Below, piece after piece: positions 2,804 to 17,066 of a DNA stretch of 41,997 bases; position 1 is the first letter of the stretch, and every line of letters starts with the position of its first letter. The stretch covers positions 1 through 41,997 of IMG/VR virus record IMGVR_UViG_2698536372_000019, one strand, 5' to 3'. This DNA is from a virus. Taxonomy: Duplodnaviria; Heunggongvirae; Uroviricota; Caudoviricetes. Made by a program: the position numbers and the translations under genes. The notes under the pieces are model-generated. The model was given only the letters and a program-made list of their open reading frames with translations, ran no database searches and was not told where the DNA came from.

Positions 2804-4288
2804 TCATTCATTAAGCCATGCCAGAGCTTCATCAACCTGCGCTTCGTCTTCGACGCTAAGCACTTCATCTTGGGGAACATAGTTCGCCAACATAGCGAAA
2901 CAATATGTATCCCAATGGTCCGGTGAGTGCAGGTTGAGTTTTTTCTTCATATCTTCCTTTGACATCACCTTCCATTGACCTGCGGAATTTATCCCTACCG
3001 GTATCTTTGATGCTTCCTCTATAGTCGCAGCCCCCTTATCAAGCCGCATACGCCCTGATTTTACAGCTTCTGCCGCCTGAATATTCGCGAAAGCGCGCAT
3101 ATCGAAATAAAGGCTTTTATCTTCACGGCTGTGCATCTTTTTACCCCAGCGGATACGCTGGACGGTAATACCATAGCGTTCGTACATCAGATCAGCCGTC
3201 GATTTCCCCAAGCCATCGCCATCAATAGCTATGGTTATGTTCGGGAACCGTTCTGGGTTACATTCTGCGAAAATCTTGGCGGCTAACTGCGTTTCTGTAA
3301 CGTCTGTGTATTCCAGCATACGATAGTTGATTACACGGCGTTTATTTCGCTGGCCGGACACCATCATGATATTAATAACGGACTTATCTCGTCCTGTGCC
3401 ACCAGCAACGTCAACACATGCAACCCAGCCCCATCCTTTGGCAATCTTGACCTTTCGCCGCGTCGCCCGCTCAACCTCATCACGACCAAGAAGAAAGCCA
3501 TCTTGAGATTTGGGAAATTCACCACGTACTTTGATCATGTACATGGGGTTATCACGACCGCCATACTCCGCAAGTTTTGCTCGTATAAATTTTGCATCTA
3601 CAAGCGGAGATTCTTCACTATTCAGTATTATCGCAGTAAACAATCCATCAGGATTTCCCGGGCGAATAGCTAGTCTGTGGTGTGAATCGTAGAAATAGCC
3701 TGAAGGTCGCGTAGGCTGGGAAAGAAGCAGAATACGGTTATCCTTACCGGTCAGCGCACCTGTTATCACACTGAATGCTTTATCACTCACACCCGACGCT
3801 TCGTCGATGATATACAAGAGATGATCGGCGTGTTCACCAGCCAACGCCTCCTCATTTCCGGGGCGACAGGACTTTATCAATATTGTCCAAACACCCTTGC
3901 CAGTCACCTCAAAAAAAGACGTTTCTGTAAGAATGAAATACTTCGACAACCACGGGAATCTGCTAACAGCAGTAGCCCAATTGCTCTTTATGTATTTGAA
4001 AATACCATCAAGGACTTGCTGTCTTTTGTTAGCGACCAGAATAACGCGAGCGCCGGGGAAAAACATGATGAAGAGTATTGCAATGATACTCGTCATATCC
4101 GACTTACCAGTACCATGGCCGGAGGTCACACTTGTCCAACTGCCGTCCTGCTGCGTGGACTCAATGATCTCATCCTGCTGCCAGGTTGGTGTCTTCCCAA
4201 ACAACACATCAGCGGCCGCAATCCAGTCATAACGATATAGCGCCACCAGCTCGCGCCAACGTGGGTCCGTTACGCAACTTCTGGCCAT
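2804..4288 (-). CDS. pacB: terminase large subunit PacB (494 aa)
   Basis: Walker [10 protein letters not shown]; length and position after pacA as in P1. Confidence 0.9.
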
Positions 4289-5481
4289 TAATCATCATCC
4301 CCGTACAGTTTGCGGGTAACTTCTTCGTCTTCCTCCTCGTTTTCGTCCAGATCCTGTTCAAGCCATGCTTCGTTTGATATGCCTTCCGCATCGACATCAC
4401 CATAACCACCTGTATCGACGATATCGGCAATTTCTTCTCTACGATGCTCAATCCACAATGCGGCATCAGCGCGGCGGCTGGCGGCCCGTTCTCGCGCAAC
4501 TTTGTCCAGATCTTCAAGAGAAGGGCCACCGACGGCTGTTTGCCTTTCCTCATCATCGGTATTGGTCTTAGGAGCACGCAGATCGGCTTTGATTTGCTCC
4601 AGCATCAGGGGCGGAACTTTCCCACCATGCGCCTCGATGAATTCAGCTGCTTCCAGCACTGACCAGTTATTTTCACGCTTTCGTTCGTATGCCAGCTTAA
4701 CAATGCCAGCTTGCCCCATAGATAAAGCGTGCTTTTCCGCCTCCCGGCTTTCTTTTCGATAGTTATTCCGGATGCTGTAAATGGTGTTGATCAGACTGCT
4801 TATCTGCGCGGAACAGCTGTTTAGCATGCTCGCGATACGGTATTCAGGCGGAGTACCTTCATCATCGTCTTTTTGCTGATCGCGCATTTCCTGCACCAGG
4901 CGAATACACGTATCCCTGGCGTTCTCCAGCATAAGGAGATGAGAAAGAGACTTTTCAAGAAGAGTGGTTTCCAGAACATCGGCCCCGGACCGACGCAACA
5001 TAGCGCGCGCGGCCTTCCGCGCTTCAACGTTATCTATCAGGTAATCGCCAGCTTCGAATTCAAAGCGTTCACCATCATCATCCAGGGTGTCGCGTTCCAG
5101 GCGATCACGTAAGGTCCGGTGGGCGCGGGTGATCACGTCATGATCATCAGAACGATCATTTATGCGCTTATTTTGGCGCTTCGCATTCTCGACTGCGGCA
5201 CTGACAACGGCATTAACCCTTTGTTTTTCCGTTATTTCAGCCGCAATGTGATCACCTGCATGTTGATCATTAGAGTGATCAATGATCATGCTTTTTAGTG
5301 GCTTCCTGACTGGCTTATTTGGCTTGCGGCTGTCCGCTGTCCTGGTGTCTTCTTTGAAGGCACGGAGATAACGACGTGCAGTATTAGGGTTAAGATTAAA
5401 CTCGGCGGCATACTGTGCGATGGTGTAACCACCATCTCGCGCCAGGCGAGCAAAATTCTTCTTGTGATCGTCCCAGGTCAC
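4288..5481 (-). CDS. pacA: terminase small subunit PacA (397 aa), contains the pac site
   Basis: [39 protein letters not shown]...; acidic C-terminus; hexamer clusters inside the gene. Confidence 0.9.
5102..5288. other. pac: P1-type pac site: two clusters of four TGATCA/TGATCG hexamers, each containing GATC
   Basis: hexamers at 5102, 5130, 5141, 5153 and 5249, 5264, 5276, 5283, separated by about 90 bp. Confidence 0.85.
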
Positions 5482-5516
5482 TTATGCTTCCTTTCGTAAA
5501 AACTCTTTTTGACGCG

Positions 5517-5536
5517 AGGGTAACGAAAGTCACATG
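5517..5536 (-). promoter_or_regulatory. late-promoter-like element upstream of pacA (CATGTGACT, 5 nt, TACCCT)
   Basis: same motif and spacing as the three CAAGTGACT sites on the plus strand. Confidence 0.45.
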
Positions 5537-5566
5537 TCAAAAGGCCCGGAACGGGCAAGCAATCAA

Positions 5567-6019
5567 TCAGATACGTGCGGATGTGGCATTACCGTAATGA
5601 CGGTGCTGACGGGCCACCTTATTGAAAAGTTGACGCGCCATTACCCAAGGCTGGTGCTCCCGGCGTTCCTTTTCGTCCTGCGTCATATAGAGTTCGTTCT
5701 GGAGTTTTTCATCAAACCGGCGCGGAGCGCGGCTACGGCGAAAGAATTCAGGATTCAGAGAGTGGATCTGAAATCTACGTGGGCGTGTACTGTCATCAAT
5801 CAAAACAGACGAATACTTAGACACAGCGATAGCCTTTAAGCGCAGATAAACATCGCGCTTATCGACATCCAGATGCGGGTATTCCTTTTCAAGAATTGCT
5901 GCGAGTTCTTTCGCTGATAGAAGAGATTTAGTGCGGATCATGTAATCCGCAATCTCGTACGATGTTATTCGTGAGTGATTTATTTCCATGAAGTGGCGTC
6001 CCTGCCAGTTAAGTAACAT
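5567..6019 (-). CDS. lpa: late promoter activator Lpa (gp10-like, about 150 aa)
   Basis: position directly upstream of pacA and size as in P1; exact start not verified. Confidence 0.7.
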   Translation of the reverse strand: MLLNWQGRHFMEINHSRITSYEIADYMIRTKSLLSAKELAAILEKEYPHLDVDKRDVYLRLKAIAVSKYSSVLIDDSTRPRRFQIHSLNPEFFRRSRAPRRFDEKLQNELYMTQDEKERREHQPWVMARQLFNKVARQHRHYGNATSARI

Positions 6020-6089
6020 CCTGTCACCTACTGATTAGCCCATGTCAACTAATCAACGTGGAATATAATACCCTCGATTAAAGAAATAG

Positions 6090-6106
6090 CAATACATTAG
6101 AGCAAT
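6090..6106 (-). promoter_or_regulatory. C1 operator-like site upstream of lpa (14/17)
   Basis: CAATACATTAGAGCAAT on plus strand. Confidence 0.45.
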
Positions 6107-6107
6107 T

Positions 6108-7151
6108 TTATCTAACACTCGACGAGTGACTTGTGATAGCGCCGACTCCAAGCGCGTAATCAAAGAACAATCGTTGATGCATCGCCAGCCTACCGTGCGT
6201 CTTCTCCCAATTATCGCGGTCACGCTCAATATCACGCTGGCATGACTGGCACAGAGGAATTGCGTAAATGTCATGCGCGCATAATCGACTATGACGAACG
6301 ATATAAGGCGTAATGTGAGCGCCAGCTCCCGCCGCTCCACACCCACAGCATGGACGGGAAGCAACAAAGTCCATGTACTCAGGTAATTTTAGCGATTGCA
6401 GTTTTGGTATTTTGAAATGCGCCATGCCAGGGTCGGAGTCAACATCCACAGGGCATACTTTTGCACGCATCGGCGCGGCGCGTTCTTCCATCATCTGAAC
6501 ATATGCTGTAGCGCGATCGTCATACGGGCGAATATCCGCCTCTTTCAGAGGTCCGCTATCCTGCGTTGCGGCTTTCATCTTATTTATTGATATACGGCAA
6601 ACTTCTTCCGGCATCAGGTGCATCATGTTGCGCATGAAAGCCCACCAGCACAGTTCCTGAATACTTAAATCATGGCCATCTGAAAGCCCCATTTCCTGAC
6701 GGGCGACATCCAGTATCCAGTTAACGCGATTATTATGCAGCGTTTCTTTCAGCTCATTAAAACCACGCATCCGGTAATGGTTATCGTGATGCCAGCACAA
6801 CAACACCGCGCTATTGTCTCGTTCAGCGTGGACAATATGGTTGTCACACCAGCTACGATCTGCGGCCTGGCATTGCCCCTCTTTCCTGCGCAACCACGCC
6901 ACCAGCGCGTCAATTCCACCAATACGGCGAAACAGTTCATCGCTGTTAAAAAACGGCTGCAACGCCTCATTTGTTGCCATGGTTTGCTCGGTAACAACGA
7001 GGCCGTCTTCCATGTGCTCGATTAACTCACGCGGCACCGGCTCCATAATAAATTTACGGCCAGCCTCCACCAGCTTTCTGACCTCCTGATCCACTTTGAA
7101 CGTGGCGAGGCCAAGCTCTTTCTGTACAAAGGGAGTAATTACGGCTTTCAC
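6108..7151 (-). CDS. hypothetical 347-aa protein with C-terminal Cys/His-rich motif (P1 pdcB position)
   Basis: long ORF; CCGCG...H...C..C..C motif near C-terminus. Confidence 0.55.
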
Positions 7152-7178
7152 ATCACACCTTTAATCACTGATTGGGCT

Positions 7179-7379
7179 TTATCTGCTGCCCGGCATTCTC
7201 TGTTTAAGCACTACCATTTCCTGACGGCATAACACAGCAATAGCGGTCCTGGCACCAATTTGCTTACCAACCAGGTATTGCTTTACCTCGCGGCGACTCA
7301 CGCCATCAAGAAGCATCTTTAACGCTTCACGGGACAATTTGTTGTATTTGCGTGCCATTAATCTACTCCGCAGAACCAT
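7179..7379 (-). CDS. small basic protein, possible HTH (P1 pdcA position)
   Basis: 59-66 aa ORF immediately downstream of doc. Confidence 0.4.
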
Positions 7380-7743
7380 ACAATCTACGTAACGTGTCGG
7401 CGACAGAAGATACAGATATCTCTCCGGTCGCAGCCCCTACGGTAAGGTCTGCCAGTTCAGGTGAATCAAATACCTGCACCCCGTTACGGCGTAGAAATAA
7501 CAGCGCACTGTTTAGCGCGGTACGCTTATTGGCATCATTGAATATATGCCCTCTCGCTGTAGCCACCAGGTAGGTGGCGGAGACTTCGAAAAGGTCGGTG
7601 ATCTCTTCGTAGGCAACTCTGGCCTGAACTCTCCCGATAATGGCCTCTGCCCTACCCGGATCTGACATTCCCGGCAGGCCGCCGTAGCGGTTTATATTCG
7701 CATCATGAAGCGCAATAAGTTCTTCCGGTGATATATGCCTCAT
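7363..7743 (-). CDS. doc: Doc toxin (Fic-fold kinase), 126 aa
   Basis: [17 protein letters not shown]...[10 protein letters not shown]... matches P1 Doc as I recall it, including the Doc-type Fic motif. Confidence 0.95.
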
Positions 7744-7964
7744 TATCGGTTAACCAGTTCCTTGTTGGTGGAGTCCAGGGTGTCAAACAGGGATGCAAAT
7801 TCAGCATCCAGCGCCGCTTTTTTGTAGGCTTCGAAAGTAGCCTTGCTGACAATTACTGCTGGCTCACGGCCTCTGCGGGTGATTTCAACCTCTTCCCCGG
7901 CTTCAACATTGTTGAGCACTTCAGAAAGGTTGCCACGCGCGGTACGGAAGTTAATGGATTGCAT
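7743..7964 (-). CDS. phd: Phd antitoxin, 73 aa; stop overlaps the doc start
   Basis: [73 protein letters not shown]. Confidence 0.95.
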
Positions 7965-8036
7965 AAACACCTCGTGTACTCGTTATGTGTACACAATTAT
8001 AAACTTCACAGGCATAAAGCACCAGCACTTTGCAGC

Positions 8037-8426
8037 TTAAATCACCGGACAATCATCAAATTCCCCACTTCGGGCATCATTGATGACATGAGTGATCACA
8101 CCAAAAACAGCATTACTACCCGTGTAACCATCGTCATCTACTGGTAACGCCTCTTTCTTCCCGGTGCTTAAATCCTCCAGGTGCTGGCGCGGATACTTCC
8201 TGTATCTCTTTATGCGATATTCACCCTCCATAGCGCACACAAGCAGAGAACCATCAACCGGAGTAAGCGAGGAATCAACCACCAGCAAAGCACCCTGCAA
8301 TATTCCCTCACGGTGATGGCTATCAGCTGCCCGCATGAAGTAGGTTGCTGATGGATGTCTAATTATCTGCTGATCAAGAGAAATTCGGCTTTCAACATAA
8401 TCCGCCGCAGGAGAAGGGAAACCCAT
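8037..8426 (-). CDS. humD: HumD, UmuD'-like SOS mutagenesis protein (129 aa)
   Basis: S24 LexA/UmuD-like C-terminal domain; LexA box about 20 bp upstream. Confidence 0.8.
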   Translation of the reverse strand: MGFPSPAADYVESRISLDQQIIRHPSATYFMRAADSHHREGILQGALLVVDSSLTPVDGSLLVCAMEGEYRIKRYRKYPRQHLEDLSTGKKEALPVDDDGYTGSNAVFGVITHVINDARSGEFDDCPVI

Positions 8427-8446
8427 AGCGTTTTACCTCAAAAATA

Positions 8447-8462
8447 CTGTTTATCTGTACAG
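8447..8462. promoter_or_regulatory. LexA box CTGTTTATCTGTACAG (perfect CTGT-N8-ACAG)
   Basis: read directly; sits between divergent humD and the 8601 ORF. Confidence 0.8.
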
Positions 8463-8600
8463 TATACATTAAAGAAGCACCTTTGGTGCAAACGCGTTAT
8501 GTACATCAACCACCGCTGATGATTTTTGTGCGCTTTGCTACTATTCATCACCGCGGGATCAGCGTAACCTCGTTGCCAATCAGTTAATAAGGAATTAGCT

Positions 8601-8936
8601 ATGCCTAATCGCATTCCTCTCGATCCTGTATTGCCCAAAAATTTTGACTGCACTCCTAACGAGAAACGCTCTAAAGCTCAGCTGGACGCCTGGTGGGACC
8701 ATCCCTATGGGGTTACAGAACATGACGGGAAAATTGTTGTTTATTGTCTGAATGGTGGCGCGTGGGACCGTCCATCCGTGCTTGGTTTGGCAAATAACTA
8801 TGATGAAGCCTGTGAACTTGCCGAAAGACAGCAGGCAAGCTGGGTAAAAACACGGTCTGAACCGACATTCATGTTTTCAAAAGAACCGCCATTTATACTG
8901 GCGAGGATGCCGCAGCGACCGGATCATCAACAATAA
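8601..8936 (+). CDS. hypothetical 111-aa protein divergent from humD (possibly LexA-regulated)
   Basis: RBS TAAGGAA before ATG. Confidence 0.55.
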   Translation: MPNRIPLDPVLPKNFDCTPNEKRSKAQLDAWWDHPYGVTEHDGKIVVYCLNGGAWDRPSVLGLANNYDEACELAERQQASWVKTRSEPTFMFSKEPPFILARMPQRPDHQQ

Positions 8937-8966
8937 ATTGTTGCTGAATTTTCCTCAAGGGATGAG

Positions 8967-9182
8967 ATGAATCTCTTCTCATTAAAGCAGGAAGAAAGGG
9001 ATCGCGTCGAAGTGTCTCCAACTCTCGACCACAACCGGATGAACCTGGCCCAACTCGCCTGGTACAGCAAAGAATTAGAGATGTCTATTGCCCGACTTGA
9101 AAACGAAAAAGCCGCTATCCAAGCCCAGCATGAAGTAGTTCTGAACCGGATTAGAGAAATGCAAAACGATAATAGAGGCTAA
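8967..9182 (+). CDS. hypothetical 71-aa coiled-coil protein
   Basis: RBS AAGGGA; no similarity to theta/HolE that I can see. Confidence 0.4.
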   Translation: MNLFSLKQEERDRVEVSPTLDHNRMNLAQLAWYSKELEMSIARLENEKAAIQAQHEVVLNRIREMQNDNRG

Positions 9183-9242
9183 ATCGAGGTAGAAAACACA
9201 TTGTTTAAGGCCACTAATTGTGGCCTCAAAGGGGAGAGATGC

Positions 9243-9767
9243 TTATTGGCTATGGCTAAAAATCAAATGAGACACTTCATGTGGTTGTAGCTCGTCAAGA
9301 TCCGGGGCCACAAAACCTTTTCCGAAAGACTTCACAAGTAATTCACCAGCCGCATCATTGTCACCTATTACACGAAAGTCATACGGCAGCATCGCAAGTT
9401 GACGGCGTAATCCTGCGGAGAAAGTCGAACCTAACAGCGCCCACGAATTGCCGCCCGCGTTGTGTACAGCTGCGCTCTTAAAAATAGACTCAGTTATCCA
9501 TATTGGGCCATCTTTTAAAGGAAGATAGGTTCCCCAAAGTAACTGTCTGCCATGTGATCGCGTGAAATACCGGGCCATCTTCGGATTGCTATGCTGCTTA
9601 GGAGCACCTGGTCTATATGTCTGATACCCAGCCAACATCCCATCAAACCTGTATAGAGGGAATGTAACTACTCCTTCACTTTCATCGATCCACTGTCTAT
9701 ATGGGTGTATATCATGGCGGTAGTTACGAGTTAGCAAATGAGCTTCCAGCTTTCCAAATTTTGTCAT
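9243..9767 (-). CDS. Toprim-like protein (174 aa)
   Basis: ITESIF and VIGDNDAAGE (DxD) motifs; ATG overlaps the stop of the upstream gene (ATGA). Confidence 0.45.
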   Translation of the reverse strand: MTKFGKLEAHLLTRNYRHDIHPYRQWIDESEGVVTFPLYRFDGMLAGYQTYRPGAPKQHSNPKMARYFTRSHGRQLLWGTYLPLKDGPIWITESIFKSAAVHNAGGNSWALLGSTFSAGLRRQLAMLPYDFRVIGDNDAAGELLVKSFGKGFVAPDLDELQPHEVSHLIFSHSQ

Positions 9768-10069
9768 ATTCCGTTCTTCCTGCATACTGGGCATGTGTTC
9801 TCTGTGAAATATGGGAAACTATTATCCAGCTCATCTACCCACTGTTTATGGTCGAAGCAGAAAAATATCTCCCACGGCATTCCATATTCTTCCATCCATA
9901 GGCGGATCTGCATTTCTATTGGAATCGGCGGTATTGCAGACACCATATCAACAGGATAACAGTTCAGACGACGTTCCAGTTCTTCTACTCTCTTCTGGAG
10001 ATGAAATATCCGATCCAGATGCACACGCCGCTCCCGTGCCATTTTAAAATAAAGCTCGCCGGTCATCAT
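9764..10069 (-). CDS. small coiled-coil/zinc-ribbon protein, paralog A (101 aa)
   Basis: C-terminal W..F.C.DH..W.DELD.SFPYF.E..CP.CR shared with 10069-10353; TAATG coupling. Confidence 0.5.
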   Translation of the reverse strand: MMTGELYFKMARERRVHLDRIFHLQKRVEELERRLNCYPVDMVSAIPPIPIEMQIRLWMEEYGMPWEIFFCFDHKQWVDELDNSFPYFTENTCPVCRKNGI

Positions 10070-10353
10070 TAACTCCTACATTCAGGGCAAGAGTTCCCTT
10101 CCGCAAAATAGGGGAAACTGCTATCAAGCTCATCACACCATCTGCGATGGTCGTAGCACCAAAACGCCTCCCACGGTGCACGGAAATACTTCATCCACCA
10201 GGACACTCGATCAGGTATATCTGCTGGTGGCAGCTCTTCTGGCAATAATTTGCCTGATAATTCCCTTTCCGCCCGCGCCAGCATTCCTTTTAGACTCGCA
10301 TTCTCTTTTTCAAGAATATCTATGCGCGCCTGTAACTCAGCTTTCGTTGGCAT
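10069..10353 (-). CDS. small coiled-coil/zinc-ribbon protein, paralog B (94 aa from internal Met)
   Basis: ...WEAFWCYDHRRWCDELDSSFPYFAEGNSCPECRS; the first 27 codons of the six-frame ORF are probably not translated. Confidence 0.5.
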   Translation of the reverse strand: MPTKAELQARIDILEKENASLKGMLARAERELSGKLLPEELPPADIPDRVSWWMKYFRAPWEAFWCYDHRRWCDELDSSFPYFAEGNSCPECRS

Positions 10354-10540
10354 GGTCCGCCTCATGCTTTTCAGCCACCAGCGGCAATAAAGCCCTGGCC
10401 ATCTTATGAACCAACAGAGCATCGATAATGCCAAGCGTATGCCCCGGCTTAATGTTTAATGCCGCCTCAAGGTGACACCTTTCCAGGTCACTTTTCTCGG
10501 CTTGTTTATGATGGTCTGGCGTAATAACGTCGCCCAAAAC
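10337..10540 (-). CDS. 3' end of a gene truncated by the N-run
   Basis: ...PGHTLGIIDALLVHKMARALLPLVAEKHEADHANES; upstream part lost in the gap. Confidence 0.35.
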   Translation of the reverse strand, partial: VLGDVITPDHHKQAEKSDLERCHLEAALNIKPGHTLGIIDALLVHKMARALLPLVAEKHEADHANES

Positions 10541-10557
10541 NNNNNNNNNNNNNNNNN
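10541..10557. other. assembly gap J2 (17 N)
   Basis: N-run placed 3 codons before the expected ant stop. Confidence 0.95.
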
Positions 10558-11582: not shown

Positions 11583-11800
11583 AGCCCCTCCTGAACAGAA
11601 GCGTTAACAGGGAGGCACCAGTAACTGAGAGAATTGCGCGAGTCAGTAGAAAAGCGTGCGGAGAAAATGCAGGGAGCATCCGGAAGCTGAGAACGTGCCT
11701 CATCTTCTGTTGGTGCGATAACGAAGTGATAGTGGCGTTTCTGGCAGGAGTAAAAGCGCCAGATAAATTCAGGGCGTGCGCAAGGATTGGCATTAACCAT
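11579..11800 (-). CDS. icd: Icd-like 73-aa protein, allele T2 (MVNANPCARPEF...)
   Basis: 73 codons, overlaps ant start; N-terminus differs from the T1 allele. Confidence 0.45.
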   Translation of the reverse strand: MVNANPCARPEFIWRFYSCQKRHYHFVIAPTEDEARSQLPDAPCIFSARFSTDSRNSLSYWCLPVNASVQEGL

Positions 11801-12050
11801 AGTTACGGCCTCACAATCAGGTTTAACAACCTGCTACCCGCTGTCNNNTCAGTAGAAAAGCGTGCGGAGAAAATGCAGGGAGCATCCGGAAGCTGAGAAC
11901 GTGCCTCATCTTCTGTCGGTGCAATAACGAAGTGATAGTGGCGTTTCTGGCAGGAGTAAAAGCGCCAGATAAATTCAGGGCGTGCGCAAGGATTGGCATT
12001 AACCATAGTTACGGCCTCACAATCAGGTTTAACAACCTGCTACCCGCTGC
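11640..12050. repeat. about 206-bp unit present twice, separated by NNN (11846-11848)
   Basis: direct duplication of the icd-prime region flanking an N-run (J3); likely assembly artefact. Confidence 0.7.
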
Positions 12051-17055: not shown

Positions 17056-17066
17056 NNNNNNNNNNN
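17056..17066. other. assembly gap J4 (11 N)
   Basis: sequence on the two sides is unrelated. Confidence 0.95.

Follow-up and report, generated by a model that had tools for sequence, protein, structure and literature searches.

The DNA analysed here, hereafter the window, comprises the 41,997 nucleotides of the IMG/VR virus record IMGVR_UViG_2698536372_000019 (Caudoviricetes), a draft scaffold that derives from a P1-like phage-plasmid. Between positions 9243 and 10540, its minus strand carries four tightly packed genes that are 100% identical to the Escherichia coli O111 plasmid pO111_2, namely, the 3' end of a pmgU-like gene, two genes coding for small paralogous proteins, named ZR-A and ZR-B, and a gene coding for a protein with a Toprim domain. 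An original prediction, made from the sequence alone, had described this segment as a translationally coupled operon. The features are listed below from the upstream to the downstream end.

10337..10540, minus strand: 3' end of the pmgU-like gene, 67 codons plus stop, truncated by a scaffold gap
10069..10353, minus strand: ZR-A, 94 amino acids, leucine-zipper helix followed by a C-terminal Cys-His-Cys-Cys (CHCC) probable zinc site
9764..10069, minus strand: ZR-B, 101 amino acids, paralog of ZR-A that shares its CHCC domain but has a distinct and longer helix at the N-terminus
9243..9767, minus strand: Toprim gene, 174 amino acids, predicted standalone primase catalytic core of the DnaG/T7-gp4 type, T5p074 family
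9204..9230, minus strand: terminator-like hairpin, 13 nucleotides past the stop codon of the Toprim gene, in the space separating it from the convergent gene lxr

All four open reading frames were recovered as predicted, together with the TAATG junction between ZR-A and ZR-B (at 10069) and the ATGA junction between ZR-B and the Toprim gene (9764-9767). The first junction departs from the short start-to-stop overlaps of 4-5 nucleotides that had been described for the whole set, since the ATG of ZR-A lies at 10353 and the TGA of the pmgU-like gene at 10337-10339, which makes an overlap of 17 nucleotides, in agreement with the RefSeq annotation of pO111_2. Shine-Dalgarno motifs (GAGG and AGGAG) precede ZR-A and ZR-B. 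With regard to the Toprim gene, the start at 9767, giving 174 residues as in RefSeq, is the most likely one; an alternative start at 9794 (183 residues) is devoid of a Shine-Dalgarno motif. The proposed coupling is thus confirmed in the sense of a tightly packed, probably co-translated array. Together, the four genes close a long run of small accessory genes, all on the same strand. Downstream, the hairpin at 9204..9230 was found by a pattern scan combined with RNA folding (-17.3 kcal/mol, z = -2.7), such sites being no commoner in the region than expected by chance; by its position alone, it is probably the end of the operon.

The four genes are real and already catalogued, and have never been studied. 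The locus itself is not new, since the exact genes are present in RefSeq under the names 'toprim domain-containing protein', 'hypothetical protein' or 'antitoxin PHD'.

The Toprim protein as a bare primase core

The last gene of the array is predicted to encode a complete catalytic core of the DnaG/T7-gp4 primase type. Its product belongs to PHROG 849, annotated as 'DNA primase' (E = 3.5e-53), and the profile of its family matches the DnaG RNA-polymerase domains in the PDB, with motifs II-V aligned with those of Staphylococcus aureus and E. coli DnaG. In this alignment, the family pattern FPL..G.L.GYQ.Y.P...K...NP...RYFT faces FPI..G...GF.GR....PKYLNSPET of DnaG. The AlphaFold2 (AF2) model, with a mean predicted local distance difference test score (pLDDT) of 90, consists of an N-terminal beta subdomain and a Toprim fold, and the best 38 PDB matches retrieved with Foldseek are all primases (DnaG, T7 gp4 and T4 gp61). 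RNase M5 appears only below these, with an E-value about a thousand-fold weaker (1e-2, compared with 1e-5 for the primases) and an alignment confined to the Toprim half. The predicted fold is the same as that of the RNA-polymerase domains of E. coli and S. aureus DnaG, T7 gp4 and T4 gp61 (TM-score on the query 0.53-0.68).

Residue conservation was counted over 141 short representatives of the family. Tyr67 and Gly79 are present in all 141, Glu93 in 140, Asp156 in 130 and Lys57 in 124, and residue 66, in the motif II/III region, is a conserved Arg or Lys. The DxD motif already noticed within VIGDNDAAGE is indeed present (Asp136 in 128 and Asp138 in 127 of the representatives), and the resemblance extends from there to the full primase core. 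Like the DnaG-type domains, the protein thus combines motifs II-V with the Toprim glutamate, the DxD motif and a third acidic cluster. Since the glutamate, both acidic motifs and the residues of the nucleoside triphosphate-binding motif II/III are under purifying selection, we infer that the protein is enzymatically active.

Other parts of a canonical primase are missing. About 25 residues precede motif II, and the chain, being free of cysteines, has no zinc-binding domain (motif I); it ends at residue 174, one helix past the Toprim fold, and therefore has no helicase-binding domain, nor is a helicase fused to it. The first 100 or so residues of the bacterial RNA-polymerase domain are lacking as well, and the protein is basic (isoelectric point 9.2). 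It differs from DnaG-type primases in the absence of a zinc-binding domain and of a DnaB-binding or fused helicase domain, and in a Lys replacing the Asp of the E-x-x-x-D motif. TtDnaG2, which was considered as a possible primase devoid of the zinc domain, does carry one.

The T5p074-type family and its gene neighbourhoods

The protein shares 43% identity, over 94% of its length, with the phage T5 protein T5p074 (T5.076, 'DNA primase-like protein', 172 residues). An exhaustive profile search retrieved 1,638 clusters at E < 1e-3, 180 of them at E < 1e-30, and nearly all members are standalone proteins of 165-190 residues. The named members include T5p074, Kagunavirus gp37 and genes of Erwinia jumbo phages. 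By its full-length similarity and its standalone size, the protein of the window falls within this family, and it shares with the homologues of Tequintavirus, Guernseyvirinae and Erwinia jumbo phages the assignment to PHROG 849, the architecture and the ESxFK glutamate motif. The setting is different: here the gene lies in a temperate P1-like phage-plasmid, at the end of a C1-controlled accessory operon and next to humD, whereas the homologues are found among clustered tRNA genes or following a gene for a helicase.

In T5 and T5-like phages, the homologue is located in the tRNA gene cluster (records L019 3489-4007 and L020 3989-4507), as a single gene in T5 itself. The homologue of Erwinia jumbo phage Deimos-Minion (L028 2908-3517) adjoins a gene for an RtcB-like ligase, that of Vibrio phage F89 g2 (L029 3929-4465) overlaps the gene of a tRNA nucleotidyltransferase (CCA-adding enzyme), and a metagenomic phage (L010) carries a tRNA-Arg gene (2000-2072) 3 kb upstream of its homologue. 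In Kagunavirus phiWAO78-1 (L021 2583-4492) and in one metagenomic contig (L034 2300-4224), the core gene overlaps the end of a gene for an SNF2/DEAD-type helicase, which suggests a pairing of helicase and primase core in these two. The remaining neighbourhoods are plain arrays of small accessory open reading frames. Furthermore, phiWAO78-1 possesses a separately annotated 'putative helicase-primase' gene, suggesting an auxiliary role for the small core.

The Deimos-Minion core gene is annotated as two open reading frames, gp49 and gp50, which correspond to PHROGs 14043 and 17952.

The paralogs ZR-A and ZR-B

The two small proteins had been recognised as paralogs that share a C-terminal signature behind a coiled coil, and this holds. 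Over the C-terminal domain, 28 of 54 residues are identical (52%; BLASTP E = 4e-22), while the nucleotide identity is just 58%, which indicates that the duplication is old. Both are members of the uncharacterised PHROG 3797 (E = 3.4e-57 for ZR-A, for which 48 homologues were found, and 1.6e-36 for ZR-B). Four residues (C66, H69, C89 and C92), spaced as C-x2-H-x19/20-C-x2-C, are invariant in 29 family members and probably form a zinc-binding site. Residues 4-33 of ZR-A show a GCN4-like heptad pattern with an Asn at an a position, and its AF2 model (pLDDT 87) is built of one long and two short helices and a small hairpin. The proteins terminate 2-3 residues past the CxxC. A search with the CHCC domain alone detected neither distant relatives nor fusions to another domain; apart from truncated fragments, the family members measure 92-116 residues. 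No member matches a Pfam family, zf-CHC2 and the other zinc-finger families included, and a search of the PDB found neither a sequence match nor a solved fold resembling these proteins.

The family has a narrow range (Escherichia, Salmonella, Pantoea, Erwinia and Limnobaculum) and is normally represented by a single gene in the early-left or nin accessory regions of lambdoid prophages. ZR-A and ZR-B share the length and the invariant CHCC motif of these prophage proteins, from which they differ by occurring as two divergent tandem copies in a P1-like plasmid. To judge by their sequences, they are evidently old tandem duplicates within a narrow phage family of the Enterobacterales. Each of them would form a parallel leucine-zipper dimer presenting two small CHCC zinc knuckles, and they would work as small binding or modulating proteins.

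Two resemblances were considered and rejected. The name 'antitoxin PHD' given to ZR homologues at NCBI is unsupported, in view of the absence of a Phd/YefM Pfam hit and of a toxin partner and the presence of the genuine phd-doc pair elsewhere in the window (7363-7970); this database name should be corrected. The resemblance to the T7 RecBCD inhibitor gp5.9 (E of about 1) is confined to the zipper helix and amounts to coiled-coil noise.

Several observations concern the natural history of ZR-A. Phage RCS47 carries an intact, unannotated ZR-A gene (L004 2998-3381, minus strand), and phage D6 a frameshifted copy (L005 2998-3371, minus strand), annotated solely as an open reading frame of 50 codons. 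Natural ZR-A/ZR-B hybrid proteins (P0024, P0025 and P0057) indicate recombination between the paralogs. In addition, the type I-E CRISPR array on the chromosome of E. coli LI60C3 contains a 32-nucleotide spacer (L026 405-436) that matches ZR-A at 100% (window 10161-10192), and the protospacer, on the minus strand, is preceded by ATG, a functional type I-E protospacer adjacent motif; immunity to this accessory gene has thus been gained by a natural host.

With its leucine zipper followed by a CHCC knuckle, and no solved relative, the ZR family is a small and tractable subject for studies of structure and function.

Independent assortment of the genes

The co-occurrence of the genes was surveyed in 5,426 complete E. 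coli genomes. The intact Toprim gene is present in 60 of them and its 3' remnant alone in about 85, while 146 harbour any ZR sequence, 24 both ZR genes and 23 the whole module. Where it exists, the module is well preserved, being 97-100% conserved in at least 23 complete genomes, and 100% identical over 1341 bp in more than 10 complete plasmids. Linkage of ZR and Toprim genes was seen only in these pO111_2-type plasmids (23 of the 5,426 genomes).

Outside this lineage, the two families were found apart. No ZR gene accompanies the Toprim homologues of PhiR41_1, of the 110-kb P1-like plasmids or of four metagenomic phage contigs; none neighbours the homologues in records L002, L007, L009, L010, L018, L031 and L034, and the annotation of T5 and Kagunavirus shows no small zinc-protein neighbour. 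Likewise, no Toprim gene was found near the ZR genes of RCS47, D6 and lambdoid prophages, nor near those in records L004 and L011-L016 and, by gene content, L023 and L025. The paralog and Toprim families thus occur apart far more often than together, and since they assort independently, the idea of the operon as one functional system is unsupported, although the observation on which it had been built was right. The genes are separately mobile cassettes and not parts of one machine.

The 3' remnant of the Toprim gene (about 210 nucleotides, equivalent to 9243-9455 of the window, unannotated, and at 3073-3300 in records L003 and L006) was found in about 85 complete E. coli P1-like plasmids and in phage SJ46. 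The gene was therefore once commoner in the P1-like lineage and has been repeatedly overwritten.

The pmgU-like gene and the probably C1-controlled array

The cut gene can be assigned as a homologue of PmgU: the C-terminal 66 residues of its translation match P1 PmgU, it belongs to PHROG 21459 (E = 4.6e-40), P1 DNA is 97% identical to it over 169 nucleotides, and it is positioned downstream of pmgT. The complete copy in pO111_2 codes for 229 residues (WP_000057456.1; full-length copy at L017). No homology to a characterised P1 protein of unrelated function was found at the locus, the only P1 homologue being PmgU, which is itself uncharacterised, labelled 'putative morphogenetic' and non-essential. 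In P1, pmgT, pmgU and pmgV are dispensable (PMC10695390), and the pmgT-humD segment is known to be hypervariable among P1-like phage-plasmids (PMC9603915). P1 itself carries pmgV, upfM/N/O and hot in the slot that is held here by the module and that adjoins humD.

In pO111_2, the same-strand array takes its start past pap, where the C1 operator OpmgT/Op88 and the PpmgT promoters are located, a region that is 99% identical between P1 and pO111_2. By analogy with this identical plasmid, the array of the window would start at the C1-operator-controlled PpmgT (Op88). Such a start would mean silence in the lysogen and early expression upon induction or infection.

The scaffold around the locus

The P1-like markers around the locus comprise phd-doc, humD, ant1 and nine C1-operator-like sites, and these identify the window as a P1-like phage-plasmid. 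Positions 4200-10540 are colinear with pO111_2 (E. coli O111:H- strain 11128) at 99.65% identity, and this colinearity stops at 10540. Two further features of the window are as follows.

10541..10557: run of 17 Ns, scaffold join of non-adjacent pieces, with the 3' end of ant1 on the far side
7363-7970: genuine phd-doc pair, with phd at 7743-7970

As originally noticed, the run of Ns truncates the pmgU-like gene. None of 736 matching E. coli records spans both of its sides, and the upstream part of the operon on the pmgU side was not found anywhere in the window; the 17 Ns are for these reasons a scaffold join, that is, an assembly artefact and not biology. The return to the sequencing reads that had been advised for recovering the missing upstream gene is unneeded, the gene being complete in pO111_2.

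Exact direct duplications occur in the window at 500-799 and 2066-2365, and at 11643-11843 and 11849-12049, the latter pair straddling a gap of 3 Ns, and short N runs are present at 1282, 11846-11848, 17056-17066 and 18183. The window is therefore a draft scaffold in which ends of contigs have been joined or overlap, and its gene order across N runs should not be relied upon. The LexA-regulated gene lxr (8601-9182, plus strand) is split into open reading frames of 111 and 71 codons that match two halves of PHROG 6164. In P1, lxr is a single open reading frame (573 nucleotides, about 190 residues), and the annotation of pO111_2 shows the same split as the window.

Proposed function and alternatives

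On balance, and with moderate confidence, we favour the view that the locus forms the distal end of a hypervariable accessory array under C1 control, composed of independently mobile cassettes, and that the last gene of the array codes for an active-looking core that is probably an auxiliary nucleotide-polymerising enzyme. This core would most likely catalyse the Mg2+-dependent polymerisation of ribonucleotides on single-stranded nucleic acid and, devoid of zinc-binding and helicase-binding domains, would show little specificity for the template sequence. It would be an auxiliary, non-essential enzyme and not the replicative primase, its most plausible role being that of a helper of phage lytic replication, beside the neighbouring host-replisome analogue humD. 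A replication-linked or nucleic-acid-targeting function, as had been suggested from the context, is therefore reasonable for the Toprim gene, with its DnaG-type core; nothing links the paralogs to replication.

Several points weigh against this view. Canonical DnaG-type primases, such as those of T7 and E. coli, need their zinc-binding domain for template-directed priming, so that priming by a bare core may fail altogether. Position E+4 is occupied by Lys97 (window 9477-9479) and not by the canonical Asp, so that the chemistry may differ from that of a canonical primase; across the 141 representatives, this position is Asp in 86 and Lys in 42, the latter forming a coherent subfamily that includes T5p074 and Kagunavirus gp37. 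In several unrelated phages, the gene neighbours tRNA or RNA-repair functions and not replication genes. Transcription from PpmgT through to these genes, over about 7.8 kb, is deduced from gene order alone, that part of the operon lying outside the window. Finally, literature searches on T5.076/T5p074, small phage Toprim proteins and P1-like Toprim genes yielded no biochemistry for either family.

The location of homologues in the tRNA cluster and near the RtcB-like ligase, tRNA nucleotidyltransferase and tRNA-Arg genes of unrelated phages could instead point to an RNA-directed enzyme, either a nuclease or a factor polymerising on or repairing RNA ends, involved in tRNA or RNA metabolism or in the contest with tRNA-targeting defences. 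Toprim domains can be RNases, as in RNase M5, which is among the weaker structural matches here, and in the PARIS effector AriB (PMC12409363); the atypical Lys at E+4 also hints at a non-canonical chemistry. Nevertheless, the primase-specific N-terminal subdomain and the residues of the nucleotide-binding motif are conserved, the model matches primases far better than RNase M5, as described above, and there are homologues coupled to a helicase of the SNF2/DEAD type that lie among replication genes or next to them. Moreover, tRNA genes and small accessory genes co-cluster in large lytic phages in any case. We consider an RNA-directed enzyme improbable, though worth keeping in mind. A Toprim nuclease of the OLD, AriB or RNase M5 type was specifically rejected, given the primase N-terminal subdomain, the lack of PADLOC hits and the absence of an ATPase neighbour. 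PADLOC thus assigned the locus to no defence system, and a search of NCBIfam gave no hits.

A split primase, in which ZR-A and/or ZR-B would supply in trans a zinc-binding module for template recognition to the Toprim core, is less likely still. The zinc-binding domains of T7 gp4 and DnaG are able to act in trans on the catalytic domain of a neighbouring subunit, the ligand spacing of the ZR proteins is close to the CHC2 pattern of E. coli DnaG, C-x2-H-x17-C-x2-C, and the ATGA and TAATG overlaps couple ZR-A, ZR-B and the Toprim gene. A precedent exists in some jumbo phages, where a DnaG-like Toprim primase is found with a separate zinc ribbon of the primase type (Iyer et al. 2021, PMC7824862), and the present locus resembles it in having a Toprim core devoid of its own zinc ribbon near small proteins predicted to bind zinc. 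In contrast with that system, no similarity of the ZR proteins to primase zinc ribbons could be detected, and only in one plasmid lineage are their genes found together with the Toprim gene. The ZR proteins do present the zf-CHC2 ligand pattern, which alone is not specific, but none of the members matches this or any other zinc-finger profile, a comparison with the zinc-binding domain of E. coli DnaG using hhalign gave a probability of 0.08%, and, ending shortly after the CxxC, they lack the rest of such a domain. In addition, the families assort independently both within P1-like plasmids and across phages, and no other examined member of the Toprim family has a ZR gene or a clear zinc ribbon as neighbour. 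The split primase was set aside as the main explanation on account of this assortment and because the ZR proteins resemble primase zinc domains in neither profile nor fold.

Least probable is that the module is decaying cargo without current function. In favour of this, truncated copies of the Toprim gene are common, as in the plasmids retaining only its 3' remnant, the ZR-A copy of D6 and ZR variants in the protein database are frameshifted and the neighbouring lxr is split in the window, but all three open reading frames are intact and equipped with Shine-Dalgarno motifs, the module is highly conserved among complete genomes, and the family-wide conservation of catalytic and ligand residues reflects purifying selection.

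Implications

The part worth experiment is the T5p074-type family behind the last gene of the array. Well over a thousand clusters of DnaG-type cores of about 175 residues have kept their catalytic residues intact while having no zinc-binding or helicase-binding domain, and they are spread over T5, Guernseyvirinae, jumbo phages and P1-like plasmids; no published function was found for them. As a tentative proposal, which we regard as rather unlikely, T5p074-type proteins may be a large unrecognised class of zinc-domain-less primase cores doing something other than lagging-strand priming, for instance a template-independent or RNA-end-directed polymerisation of ribonucleotides in tRNA or RNA repair or in counter-defence; or, more narrowly, the core may have recruited the duplicated CHCC proteins as trans-acting specificity modules in the pO111_2-type lineage. 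The function of the bare core bears on the template specificity of primases and on the reason why phages carry a second primase-like gene.

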